NCBI GenBank assembly: GCA_964016885.1
Contig: OZ024746.1
Location: 89,280,001-89,344,000 of the forward strand
Direction: 5' to 3'
DNA from: Eledone cirrhosa
Lineage: Eukaryota
Length of the DNA stretch: 64,000 nt
Shown here: positions 9,627-57,002 of the stretch, piece after piece
Numbering within the stretch: position 1 is the stretch's first letter
How the letters are laid out: every line of letters begins with the position of its first letter
Notes under the pieces: generated by a model
What the model saw: the letters and a program-made list of their open reading frames with translations, nothing else
The model's database searches: none
Told to the model about the DNA's origin: nothing
Made by a program: the position numbers and the translations under genes

Positions 9627-9832
9627 ACAAAGAGGGTGTGGTAAGATACCAGGTGGACCATAACGCACCAGAGTACTCAATACATAGGGTAGTAGAGTGA
9701 GCAATAGGAAAAGCGTCAGGACCCCGACGGTTGAGCTCCGGCCGTTTTGACGGTTAGATCTGAACTAACTTTAGTTCAGATCTAGCTGCCGAAACGGCCG
9801 GAGCTCAGCCGTCGGTGTCCTGACTCTTTTCC
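9627..9832 (-). mobile_element. Family A fold-back element (palindrome 9707-9832) with the 3' half of a hammerhead
   Basis: Inverted arms around 9769-9770; GAAAC-stem-GTC; homologous to 29816-30005 and 31449-31636; TA on both sides. Confidence 0.85.
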
Positions 9833-10264
9833 GATATATATATATATATTCACAGGAACTAATGTTTTAGGTAAATGCTCCCCTATCACACGTTACAGTA
9901 CCCGTGACGTACTGAAACTCTCTGGCTCGGCCCCAACCCCTGCACACCGGTCTAGTCGACTATTGTCACCAGCCATCTTACTTTTCTTTCGATCCTACAA
10001 ACCCTCCGAACTTGGTTGCTATATTATACACTTATACATCACATCATATATATATATATATATATATATATATATATATATATATATATATATATATATA
10101 TATATATGCATGCAAGTCCGCTATCACATGCCACACGTATATAGAGAATTAGCTTTTAATGAATTCCCATTTCTTTCAACCAATGACCTCCACCCATACC
10201 ACTCCCCACCCTCTCCTACCACCTGAAATGATATACATGCCACAACATTTATTTTTGGAAAGCC

Positions 10265-10315
10265 AGATTCCTGATGACTTCTAAAGAATGAAACAGTACT
10301 AGTCCTGTAGAATCT
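10265..10315 (+). ncRNA. Minimal type-I hammerhead ribozyme (family D)
   Basis: agattc-CTGATGA-cttct aa agaat-GAAA-cagtactagtcctg-TA-gaatct; 6-bp perfect stem I. A second copy is truncated in the core at 31866-31996. Confidence 0.88.
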
Positions 10316-10414
10316 CATCTATATTAAAATATTTATACTCTGCTATGTTTTGAGAACCTTACTTACTGTGGTTACCTCCGATTCAACCAGGAATAACTTA
10401 CCCATATATATATA

Positions 10415-11371
10415 TGTAAGTATGTATGTATGTATACGTACATACATATATGTATACAGACATACAGATATACAGTATATACATACATGCACACATATAT
10501 ACATGCACGTATCGGTTTACCGAACATTTATTATAATGCTCGGTTTGTTTGTTTGTAAACAAACGAACAGCCCGAATTACGACGTGCAGTGTTTAAGCAA
10601 CCACGTCACCTTTTTGTTCAACACTGACACAGGAACGATGTACTAGTTTGAAGCTTATTAGCTATCGTCAGCATCGTATACCTTCCTACCAGATCGTTGA
10701 ACGTCTGAAAGTATTTACTTTCTTTATGCATATTAACGGCTGAGCAGCCTAATTTGCATATCGAGTGACTTCAGTCGGCCAGGCACACCGAAAACGATAA
10801 ATGGAATAGAATGAAACGAAATTTCATTTCTCACTCTTAGTACGGCACTTACTTAAATGTAAGTATGTATGTATACGTACATACATATATGTATACAGAC
10901 GTACAGTAGTATGTATATACATACATTCACACATATATACATGCACGTATCGGTTTATCGAACATTTATTATAATGCTCGGTTTGTTTGTTTGTAAAGAA
11001 ACAAACAGCCCGAATTGCGCGGTACAGTGTTTAGGAAACCACGTCACCTTAGGAAACACTGACACAGGAATGATGTACTAGTTTCAAGCTTATAAGCTAT
11101 CGTCAGCATCGTATACCTTCCTGCCAGATGGTTGAACGTCTGAAAGTATATACTTTCCTTATGCATATTGTTTACAAACAAACAAACCGAGCATTATAAT
11201 AAATGTTCGGTAAACCGATACGTGCATGTATATATGTATGCATGTATGTATATATACATACTACTGTACGTCTGTATACATATATGTATGTACGTATACA
11301 TACATACTTACATTTAAGTAAGTGCCGTACTAAGATTGAGAAATGGAATTCCGTTTCATTTTATTCCATTT
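10415..11371 (-). mobile_element. Retrozyme-like tandem repeat (family F, ~435-440 nt unit, ~1.7 copies) plus inverted ~200-bp arm
   Basis: Tandem copies 10415-10857 and 10858-11169, one HHR motif per unit; 11170-11371 is an inverted copy of about 10797-10996; TA-flanked. Confidence 0.85.
11071..11111 (-). ncRNA. Minimal hammerhead ribozyme (family F)
   Basis: Minus strand: cgatg-CTGACGA-t-agct tata agct-t-GAAA-CTAG-TA-catc. Sister copy 10636-10676 has GAAA->CAAA. Confidence 0.88.
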
Positions 11372-11464
11372 ATATATATATATATATATATATATATATA
11401 TATATATATATATATATATATATATATATATATATATATATATATATATATATATATATATATA

Positions 11465-11790
11465 TTGTTATACTTGGGGAGGCTCATATTGTTGTAGTAA
11501 TATTGCCAGAAATAATAACAGAACACACTCACCGTTTGGTTGGTTTTCGCTTCTGTATCTTTTATATCTCCACAGTTAATTCATTCGGTCCTCAGTCACT
11601 GACCAACGGTCAAAAATACAGATATAATATACATATAAACACATATATCTAGTCTAACAAAGTTCTTTCGTTGCACATCTGCAACATCATCAGTGGTACT
11701 ATTATCTTGCTCCTGTTGTATTTCTATATCTACGCCATCTTTCATATTTGTTTCGACACATGATTTCATATCAAAAACCTCGCAAAACAA
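11465..11790 (-). mobile_element. Family C pLTR fragment with HHR core (11658-11695) and inverted 3' terminus
   Basis: Homologous to 38070-38400 and 51961-52245; CTGATGA-t-gttgca gatg tgcaac-GAAA on the minus strand. Confidence 0.85.
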
Positions 11791-53571: not shown

Positions 53572-53765
53572 GGGCGGGGGATTGGCAGTATCGGTAGAGG
53601 TTCAGACGCCATGTTTGCAACATCGACTTACGGCCCTTTATGATCTGAGTTCAAATCCCGCCTTTCATGGTTATGGGGTCGATAAAATAATGTACCAGTC
53701 ACGCACTGGGGTCGATTTCATCTACATTCCCCTCCTCCAAAGCTGCTGGCCTTGTGCTTATATAA
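53572..53765 (+). mobile_element. SINE copy
   Basis: Same core as 16481 and 26450. Confidence 0.8.
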
Positions 53766-54870
53766 AAAAAAATATTTGTTGTGTTAGAGTTAAGTTTGAC
53801 GTGTGCATATGAAACAAGTTTGGTTAAAGTTTTTTATGTAAATTAACATAAATGAATTTTCCCAGTTTTTCATTTTAAGAAGGGCCCTTAATTTGTGATT
53901 GTCGTTTTACATAGCAAGCGTTGTTGCGTGTCATCCTATGAACAAGCGGTATTTTTTGCGAAACTATTCATTGTTTTAAAAAAATATATAACAAAAGAAA
54001 TGGTGAAGGTAATGTTCTAATGCATATATTATTGGATGAAATGTGTGCTAACATATACAAAACATGGCCGTATACATTCTCGCGATATTTAAGTTTGGTC
54101 AGTCTATTAGGAAAGTTCAATAGGTAATCGTGGTGGTTAATACAATACTGGAACAAAGTTGCAAACCTTTTCAGCTTTGTATAAGTAAATATTATTAATC
54201 TAACGTAATATTTTGCTGATTTTGCTTTAAATTTTGAACACTATTTTTAAAGATTTCTAATGAAAAGTTTTCGATAATTTGTAGCAATCTCAGCAATGTT
54301 GGTAAACTGGCATCTTTTGTATTGCTTTTAAAAGATGAATTATTACTGATAAGGACACCTGGAATATCAGAGATAAAGATATTGTTTGAATAAGACAATT
54401 CTTTATACATTATATAATTTATTCGTTTATATTTCACGCAAATTAAGTTAACATGTGGTATCAAACACAAAATAAATCTGTAGAAAAATCTAAAGGTGCA
54501 ATACCTATAAATCTAAATAAAATCAAGGAAGTGTAAATAATGTTTATGTGATAAAATATACAACACGGCTGGAAGAGTAAAAAAATTGTTTTCATAAACC
54601 TATTGCGAATGCTGTGAAATAGTAACTGGCAGTTGAAGTTAACACTATTGTAACCAACTAAAACAAACTTTACAATGAGGGAGAATAGTAAAGGAAATCT
54701 ACCAAAAATAGCATACATACAGACGCATCTCACCTTGCTAAAGTGGGATCTTTAGTACTCCAAACTATCTAAAATACTACCTTCAATATTATTAAAGAAA
54801 TTAAAGAGAATAAGATTTGGACTATAAAAAAGATAAGTCTGAAAAAGTACTGAAGTTTAAAGTTTATGCA

Positions 54871-55038
54871 CCGTATTTTCCGGCGTCGAAGACGCTACTT
54901 TTTTCCTAAAATAAGTCTCGAAAATCTACCATGCGTCCTGGAGGCCGAAGGCTGTTTATTATGTTTTTTCAAATTTTTGGTTGTCAAAATTAGACTGCAT
55001 CCTCGACGACTAAGCGGCTTCAGCGCCGGGAAATGCGG
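54871..55038. mobile_element. MITE with Tc2/pogo-like terminal inverted repeats
   Basis: ccgtattttccggcg .. cgccgggaaatgcgg followed by TA. Confidence 0.7.
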
Positions 55039-55929
55039 TAAAACATTAAGCTAGTAGTGTACACATATGAGAAATACATTAGATTAAACGTTTACAAAGC
55101 CAGATTGTAATTTACAATTATTGAGAAACAATAAAAACATATTCGGAAATATCGTTAATAATGGGTAATTCCAGAATTATTAAAGTTAGTATATTTTTGC
55201 ATACACGAGACTAATAGACCTGTAACTAACTATGTATAACATTTATGTGAGATTTTTATGAAGTATAATATATCATTAGAATGCCAAGAAACATTTTCTT
55301 TTAGTAAGGTCATGTTTTTCTCAAACACACAATTTACGGTGTTTATATTTCGGAGGCTAAACATTCATTTATGAGGCCAAAGATTGTACAATATTTAGTG
55401 GTATCTTGTCATATTAGCCTCGAGCTCGAGAGCTACTTCTCACAAAATTGGGGAGCAGAAAAGAATTAATTTCGAGTTATAGGCGGACAGATTACATTTT
55501 GTGTCATTCGATATGAAGTTCTCCATCATATTTGGTCCTCGAATGCAGCTCCCCTGTATCAAATCAGGATGACGTGTGACATATATTGAATGAAACACAA
55601 TAGGTAGAGTAGCTGATGAATCGGATAATGTTGGTGAGTCATGCGTTTGCTCTTGTAGCCTCCCATCTGCGGCATGTAGTCGAAACAAATTATCCAATAA
55701 TGCTTGTAGCATGTGTTTATTTGTTGTTCTGAACTCAGCTTGTGATACTAATAAGACTATGACTTTTGTGAGAGAACCAAGTTCAGCACTCGATGCAGAG
55801 CAGTGTGTATTTAATATTTAAAGTGATTTTTGTTCTGTTAACACTGATCTTAGGACTAGGCAGACTTGGAGTGTACTCTGGGGTGCCAAACCAGATCACA
55901 TGTGTTGTTATATATATATATATATATAT

Positions 55930-56575
55930 ATATATATATATATATATAGCTGTGAGTAACAAACAACACATGCACATAAATACGAACTACAACACAAAAA
56001 ACACTTAAATGAAAATCACATACCCAACTCTATCTAGTGCTTTACATTACACCTTACATAAAAAAGAATACCTACATTATCACCACATGCGTCTTTTAAT
56101 ATATTGCACACTATCGTAAATGTTTATAACAAATATAACATGCTTTAACACCCCACACAAAATATGTTTATTTCAACTGCATTATAACTCTTTCCTCATA
56201 CATGCATTATTGACTGTATTGACTCCTGCATTGTACACCAATTGTCCTGGCTTCTACCTTCTTTCCTTGTCTTCTTTTGCTTGTGATATTTTTTGCTTGT
56301 GCTTTTTACTTTTACTTATACCTATTACACTCCCAACCAGTCCTGCTTGTAATTGTGTTATTTCAAGCGGAACATCTTTTTAACTCCTAAATATCCACAT
56401 GATGCCTTTGACACTAATAACAACTATGTACCCTAAATGTTCTAAATGACTAGGATTCTAGTTACACGTTTTCGACATTCCTTATCCTCCGATGATTCCA
56501 GACTTCCCTCTGGAAGAAACAATTGTCAGTTAATAAATGTTCTAAACTAAAATTTGATCCTTTTAACACTTTGTA
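55930..56575 (+). mobile_element. Solo family H pLTR with hammerhead motif 56487-56529
   Basis: CCGATGA-ttccaga cttccc tctggaa-GAAA-CAATTG-TC; homologous to 4640-5290; TA-flanked. Confidence 0.85.
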
Positions 56576-56650
56576 TATATATATATATATATATATATAT
56601 ATATATATATATATATATATATATATATATATATATATATATATATATAT

Positions 56651-57002
56651 TAGAAAGTGAGGTTTTTTTTACAAAATGAAAAATAACCGAGTGAAAGTAT
56701 AAAGAAAAAGAGATGAAATCGAAAATGCAACTGGAGTCTTATTTTTTTTTTAAATATATATATTTATTTGGTTGCTTTACCGGTGTTTCGCGGTTCTTCT
56801 GCTTTTCAAAAGGTGAGTTGAGATGGAGGGTCTGTGGTTTTTCTCACATCTGATGTGAGAAAAACCACACACCCTCCATCTCAACTCACCTTTTGAAAAG
56901 CAGAAGAACCGCGAAACCGGTAAAGCAACCAAATAAATATATATATTTAAAAAAAAAATAAGACTCCAGTTGCATTTTCGATTTCATCTCTTTTTCTTTA
57001 TA
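56651..57002 (-). mobile_element. Fold-back element with ~152-bp arms and 1-nt spacer (centre 56851)
   Basis: Near-perfect palindrome 56698-57002; decayed HHR-like GAAA-CCGG-TA in the arms. Confidence 0.9.

Follow-up and report, generated by a model that had tools for sequence, protein, structure and literature searches.

Penelope-like elements (PLEs) that carry an endonuclease (EN+) are known to leave inverted pseudo-long terminal repeats (pLTRs) with a tail at one end and a palindromic join, and the published copies are 5'-truncated, face each other head to head, sit in (TA)n and contain a hammerhead ribozyme in the pLTR (PMC3846280, PMC8557442). The accessible text of these accounts gives no fixed position for the join and proposes self-priming on an antisense template, and the origin of tandem and inverted PLE ends is described as an open question (PMC8557442, PMC11167929). 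In vitro, the Anolis Poseidon element PAc cuts and extends both target strands, from two start sites that bound the tail and with uncleaved RNA, ribozyme cleavage not being needed; the positions where its complementary DNAs (cDNAs) end and the formation of inverted arms are not addressed in the available portion of that study (PMC11167929). Twin priming of L1 similarly involves priming of both target ends, microhomology at the inversion join and an extra G at full-length 5' ends (PMC11702581), and in R2 the cDNA snaps back to make inverted sequence once it has reached the template 5' end, a process that needs a loop and yields no second arm with a fixed outer end (PMC11371274). Here we have analysed a window (the whole stretch, 64,000 nucleotides (nt), positions 89,280,001 to 89,344,000 of contig OZ024746.1) from the 3.0-Gb assembly of Eledone cirrhosa, which holds seven palindromic insertions of this published PLE kind. 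Unlike in the published inverted pLTRs, joins here pile up at the likely capped 5' end of the sense RNA, and the tails measure from about 70 nt (family A, see below) to more than 100 nt (family D), versus 30-40 nt in published PLEs. With respect to L1, the differences are that the second primer uses a fixed cis site and that the arms mostly overlap in sequence rather than abut. Our preferred reading, to which we give a probability of about 70%, is that the joins accumulate at a site that is specific to the family and has no relation to the ribozyme, because two cDNAs started from both cut ends of the target ran off the capped 5' end of the RNA and were then joined. In short, the insertion layout is of a known kind, anchoring on the ribozyme is not supported and a transcript-start rule is likely, with moderate to good support. 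No start-site or cap explanation of PLE joins was found in the full-text literature, in a search that missed most subscription papers.

The original prediction had listed seven head-to-head inverted repeats in the window, explained as PLE insertions into (TA)n, most of them with an extra tail on one arm and the other arm halting at an internal site adjoining (TA)n. All seven are present where they had been placed and this description of them was borne out, the halt being at a fixed site. They are head-to-head pairs of PLE ends in (TA)n and belong to five unrelated families, A (palindromes at 9627, 29816 and 31449), B (31287), C (32315), D (40488) and E (56698). In the following rows +1 denotes for each family the upstream border of the cluster (pile-up) that its 5' ends form, and core means the hammerhead core.

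9627..9835, family A, diverged subfamily: tailed arm 9627-9768 (-), tail-less arm 9771-9835 (+), (TA)n on either side.
29816..30008, family A: tailed arm 29816-29947 (-), tail-less arm (+) from the family +1 (29948) to the inner start site (+61).
31449..31637, family A: tail-less arm 31449-31507 (-), reaching +3; tailed arm 31507-31637 (+), starting at +9.
31236..31435, family B: tailed arm (-), tail-less arm (+), each truncated about 8 nt upstream of the core, the two separated by an A/T-rich insert.
32315..32535, family C: tail-less arm (-), tailed arm (+), joined via 3 shared bases at about 32384-32386.
40488..40830, family D: tail-less arm (-), tailed arm (+, tail about 40733-40830), 13-nt spacer.
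56651..57002, family E: tailed arm (-) ending at +1 (56851), tail-less arm (+) starting at +2 (56852), 1-nt loop.
56889..56926 (+, mirrored on -), minimal type I hammerhead of family E: U3-A8 core 56893-56899, palindromic stem III, 42 nt from the palindrome centre.

The arms of 9627..9835 are only 86-88% complementary, so this is an old copy. In most family A copies the tail-less arm ends at +61, which is the inner start site. The hammerhead of the 31449..31637 copy is reduced to its 3' half, with the GAAA box, stem III, the cleavage triplet and the 3' strand of stem I retained, and the family D copy at 40488..40830 has the whole hammerhead on both strands, with the core at 40635 on the + strand. 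Joins fall at +1 to +9 in the E copy and in the A copies with palindromes from 29896 and 31449, and at about +4 to +8 in the C copy; the A palindrome from 9707 probably joins at +1 to +9 too. The B and D copies are off-mode, the first with a join atypical for its family and the second joined about 100 nt downstream of the family D +1.

Exact short patterns matched the assembly 38,057 times for the A tail, 15,826 for the C tail, 6,066 for the E tail, 6,162 for the D core and 4,180 for the B core, and the reversed control patterns of these five families gave 0 matches. Forty evenly spaced 10-kb stretches held about 11 family A insertions, all but one short. Two kinds of sample were used to map 5' ends: tail-anchored loci, which involve no selection on the 5' end and whose ends were called by script, and the first 100 matches listed for families E, J, D and G, counted by eye, where the patterns of E, J and D demand A or T at the first base and native copies are consequently favoured. 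Copies collected as top BLAST matches are biased towards the query and were excluded from the end histograms, being included only in haplotype and loop counts.

The joins are far from random, as had been predicted. In the tail-anchored loci the interval -8..+13 holds the ends of 38/73 tailed and 42/54 inverted arms in family A, 29/50 and 13/26 in family E, and 9/25 and 6/16 in family D (25 of 30 loci scored). Among the first 100 matches listed, family E has 30 ends at -1/+1, 4 in -2..-29 and 66 beyond -30; family D has 10 beyond -30, about one between and the remainder in -4..+7; and one G subfamily has about 67 in -4..+8 and 29 beyond -40. Families J and H were examined after the start-site idea had been formed, J serving as the independent test family, and of its 100 ends 69 are in -2..+10, 4 in -3..-29 and 27 beyond -30. 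The window copies of these three further families are:

10230..10402 (+), family J copy with its native upstream sequence kept: degenerate TATA box at 10232, +1 at 10265, hammerhead core at 10271.
62894..63232, family H (E-like): asymmetric head-to-head insertion, one arm ending at +2 of family H.
31996-32250 and 59285-59440 (-), family G copies.

A TATA box is located at -30 in E and between -33 and -30 in J, H and one A subfamily have a TATA-like word (at -32 and -29, respectively), and CCAAT boxes are found farther upstream in A, D, E and J. Where the base before +1 in family J lies next to an A/T-only flank, it reads G in 42 of the first 100 copies listed (4 of them ambiguous), C, the native base, in 21, T in 22 and A in 15. 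This extra G is neither the native nor the target base, and at a control position three bases downstream G was seen in 2 of the 100. Family E has the extra G in 16 of its 100. Capped full-length L1 insertions are recognised by such a G (PMC11702581), and here it marks the template end even if it was added untemplated for another reason. PLE transcripts are described as starting inside the pLTR (PMC2377424, PMC8557442). Since ends stop sharply, with a TATA box (TATA-like in H) upstream in E, J and H and an extra G above all in J, the hot spot looks like an RNA 5' end, and judging by the sequence it is likely to be the capped 5' end of the element RNA. Joins at +1 in C1:5226702, 18731501, 20838036 and 23089394 show runs of A or T, which suggests untemplated addition of A to cDNA ends. 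Ahead of the family G hot spot the sequence looks like a 3' splice site, including a branch point and a pyrimidine tract.

The structure of the joins bears on how the two arms are made. Loops of 0-2 nt, found in 21/52 palindromes of family A, 10/17 of E and 4/6 of D, are too tight for a priming hairpin, which argues against fold-back self-priming. Furthermore, either arm can be the longer one (tailed in 13 and tail-less in 16 copies of family A, 7 and 6 in family E), and wherever the tail-less arm holds sequence absent from the tailed arm this route is excluded for that copy. In 9/30 C, 3/73 A and 2/25 D loci the inverted arm extends farther than the tailed one, which already halts close to the inner start site; this is the twin-priming layout, some cases of which later deletion could mimic. 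The commonest join of family D is loop-less, as expected if two ends at +1 anneal via a self-complementary 4-mer. When the haplotypes of both arms were compared in 44 pairs, 34 were identical (28% expected at random), 8 differed by one base, one by an indel and one by three bases, and at one two-state site the arms were concordant in 44/44. The shared haplotype indicates that one source supplies both arms. The proposal that the cDNA stalls on ribozyme structure and folds back to prime itself is therefore contradicted by the 0-2-nt loops and by the tail-less arms with extra sequence, and its alternative, that two RNAs prime the two cut ends, is supported as to the priming of both ends and not supported as to RNAs of different origin, the arms sharing one haplotype. 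Two RNAs of different subfamily were rejected as a source, as L330 is the only locus whose arms differ at three linked sites and the difference there looks like a patch on one arm, and so was a palindromic master of the miniature inverted-repeat transposable element (MITE) type, as joins vary and flip relative to the tail.

The claim that the ribozyme determines the fold point across unrelated families was not upheld, because the offset from hot spot to core differs by family: relative to +1 the core starts at -43 in A, +6 in C, +7 in J, +43 in E, about +80 in G and +123 in D. Only part of what had been seen in family A stands. Its three centres do fall within what is loop II in the parent ribozyme, immediately 5' of the GAAA box, but the hairpin there is not the native stem II; the 5' strand of that stem is absent and the hairpin is created by the inversion itself. 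The two ribozyme motifs cited at other centres turned out to be artefacts of the join, the 7-mer at 32382-32388 in the family C palindrome (32315-32450) being chimeric, with un-inverted C copies reading A and not T at the second position, and the 6-mer at 56850-56855 in the family E palindrome (56698-57002) being a by-product of a join whose true hammerhead core starts at 56893. Likewise, the folds at 31287-31435 and 40488-40732, which had been tied to a ribozyme a short distance away, are off-mode copies of families B and D; none of the B copies listed is inverted near its ribozyme (28 whole and 1 partial of 30), and the modal join of D lies about 120 nt upstream of the core. The family C hot spot near the core is weak at most. 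At the 3' foot of stem II, where a stall on structure would be expected, family A arms do not accumulate (5/121 arms at +17..+19), and this speaks against a ribozyme stall.

Reverse transcription in the family A arms continued beyond the cleavage site, as well as beyond stem III and the 3' strand of stem II. Because the arms extend across the cleavage site, the template must mostly have been uncleaved. Tailed arms of family A ending at the cleavage site (+41..+43) number 3/73, against 17 over +14..+57, which is indistinguishable from background. The tailed arms at L157, L160 and L339 start at or beside that site, perhaps as a minor class copied from self-cleaved RNA. In window 10420-11373 family F has tandem and inverted copies with hammerheads, the joins being scattered and with no clear hot spot among copies found as by-catch.

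The un-inverted family A parent contains a type I hammerhead with the U3-A8 core variant, a variant already described (PMC4209133). Its helices are paired in 94.7% of cells versus 24-54% when slid, with position 7 varying, and the six sequences compared have no compensatory changes and an altered position 3 in 2/6. With three helices, a conserved core and the 3-8 pair, it classifies by structure as a type I hammerhead. A scan with Rfam gave no hammerhead among 122 matches, only spurious microRNA-hairpin matches below the gathering scores. In the family C parent, position 4 of the core is A where the canonical core has U, a T-T mismatch at the foot of stem II takes the place of the 10.1-11.1 pair, and the fold is hammerhead-like by eye only. 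This A at core position 4 is found in a family of more than 15,000 copies (e.g. L183, L206), and family H has a changed GAAA box, so both ribozymes are possibly inactive within successful elements. At least 13 hammerhead families with at least three copies each were found in 1.37 Mb, and separate families nest inside the same (TA)n tracts. An identity as non-LTR (long terminal repeat) retrozymes, which are head-to-tail tandem units with a whole hammerhead in each (10.64898/2026.07.22.740005), was rejected, the copies here being head to head and the family A stumps lacking half of the ribozyme.

In the mechanism that we favour, the element endonuclease would cut both strands of the TA tract, as happens in vitro for another PLE (PMC11167929). 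One end would then prime at the outer start site to give the tailed arm and the other at the inner start site to give the tail-less arm; the outer ends of both arms are observed to be fixed, and the priming is what we infer from them. The start sites used would belong to the pLTR copy that leads the transcript and would lie 60-350 nt from the RNA 5' end; both cDNAs would therefore be short and would halt at +1, sometimes with a base added opposite the cap, as the pile-up and the extra G that we observe would suggest. The two 3' ends would be trimmed and joined via 0-4 shared bases or short inserts, features visible at the junctions, presumably by an end-joining pathway. A single transcript, or sibling transcripts made from one source copy, would supply both arms, the haplotype match being compatible with strand displacement as well as with two sibling RNAs.

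Other explanations account for part of these data. After running off at the RNA 5' end the cDNA could snap back, fold at +1, self-prime and later join the other target end or the tail cDNA. Such a course would give arms of one haplotype, some A subfamilies have a native micro-hairpin across +1 and the matching 6-nt-loop join recurs, there are templated inserts at joins, snap-back after full-length cDNA synthesis has been reported for R2 (PMC11371274) and self-priming has been proposed for PLE palindromes (PMC3846280); but the loops of 0-2 nt counted above are too tight for a priming hairpin, either arm can be the longer and tail-only arms stand beside long inverted arms. We consider it unlikely as the general route, and it probably explains a minority of joins, for example the 6-nt-loop class of family A. 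A stall of the reverse transcriptase (RT) on ribozyme structure with fold-back at that point, so that the ribozyme would fix the centre in unrelated families, would agree with the hot spots of A (in loop II), of J (bordering stem I) and, weakly, of C (close to the core). The distances of 43 nt in E, about 80 nt in G and 123 nt in D from the hot spot down to the core, the missing pile-up at the stem II foot in A, the two motifs that are join by-products and the extra G, which a stall leaves unexplained, make this explanation very improbable.

Equally little can be said for the fixed end being an RNA processing end (splice-site cleavage or a nuclease), a protein roadblock or the result of amplified short non-autonomous master copies, which we regard as very doubtful. 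Hot spots in A, E, H and J do read pyrimidine-A-G, that of G comes after a pyrimidine tract and PLE introns within the pLTR are described (PMC4209133, PMC2377424), yet ends begin at the A and not past the AG, no common upstream exon was seen, ribozyme cleavage sites do not coincide with +1, and joins differ between copies while a given join is met in either orientation with respect to the tail. That the palindromes are assembly or amplification chimeras can practically be dismissed, as arms have diverged independently (86% complementary at 9704-9835), ends are fixed and family-specific, copies number thousands and the same layout flanks a complete element. Two 56-nt contigs from four runs span the centre in 31478-31534, with fewer than 31 letters on one side and possibly from the assembly's own sample, and were not counted.

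Several points weigh against the run-off of two cDNAs at a capped 5' end. Transcription start and cap are deduced from DNA ends, and +1 in A, D and E was derived from the pile-ups themselves. Family C has no hot spot in its tail-anchored loci (1/30 tailed and 1/16 inverted arms in -8..+13), nor has family B one near its ribozyme among the copies listed. The TATA rule failed as a predictor of the hot spot in family G, for which it had been applied beforehand: ends do not pile up 30 nt past the TATA-like word beside the core, and the real hot spot is about 80 nt upstream of the core, after a pyrimidine tract and with no TATA. There is also no TATA at -30 in D, and that of A is variable. The extra G appears in only 5 of the 100 family A copies listed, and the three-base control of family J is imperfect, the native base there matching the target. 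In J, +1 coincides with the 5' edge of stem I, which confounds structure and start, and the pyrimidine-A-G of the A, E, H and J hot spots is also a 3' splice-site word. The identity of the arms is equally a prediction of fold-back, and the 6-nt-loop class of family A (4/52 plus the 29896 copy) and the templated inserts fit snap-back. Finally, the places sampled were those listed first, most of them on contig C1, and some indel-bearing copies have wrong automated end calls.

Family A is part of a complete EN+ PLE of the Hydra type, according to its sequence features. One copy runs on into a broken open reading frame (ORF), and locus L361 has a tailed inverted copy, a pLTR, an RT-endonuclease ORF and a tail-less 3' pLTR, with direct repeats spaced 3,537 nt as in the partial-tandem pLTR layout, giving a unit of 3,537 nt. 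The broken ORF of L361 contains RT motifs, a linker and a YIG segment and has homologues at E values of 6e-55 to 8e-30; Pfam gave no match on its divergent pieces. The DKT motif and the CxCX5C linker both match the Hydra clade, with which family A also shares a C-terminal GIY-YIG-like segment, the hammerhead and (TA)n targets, and from which it differs in having RWR in place of RWK, with a broken endonuclease end, and a 3.5-kb unit where the described elements are 'generally <3 kb' (PMC8557442). Families B, C, D, E, G, H and J are putative PLEs on the basis of hammerhead, tail, inverted layout and (TA)n target. Another Hydra-type PLE ORF remnant is located at 42376-44161 (-) of the window, with an RT piece 44% identical to that of family A over 59 amino acids, a CxCX5C linker and a GIY-YIG segment. 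A second PLE-like RT ORF, of a different type, was found at 790-2496 (+), and a GIY-YIG-like fragment within a complex inverted duplication at 38801-40456. Outside the named families, the window contains an old palindrome (34734-34986, 73% complementary). RT ORFs at 60568-62643 (-) and 12704-14287 belong to non-LTR retrotransposons that we take to be RTE-like.

Taken together, these data may tentatively be read, at somewhat less than even odds, as PLEs routinely initiating reverse transcription close to the 5' terminus of their capped RNA and making short strong-stop-like cDNAs from both target ends. The palindromes would then be aborted double strong-stops, the inverted pLTR of full elements would be the same product, the stumps would map the transcription start to the base and, as family A would start inside its ribozyme, its 5' copy could not self-cleave. 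Tens of thousands of natural insertion products point to a capped sense RNA copied from both cut ends, in opposition to the published self-priming on an antisense template. This reading makes precise predictions for the existing in vitro PLE system, and it would make PLE promoters readable from DNA alone.

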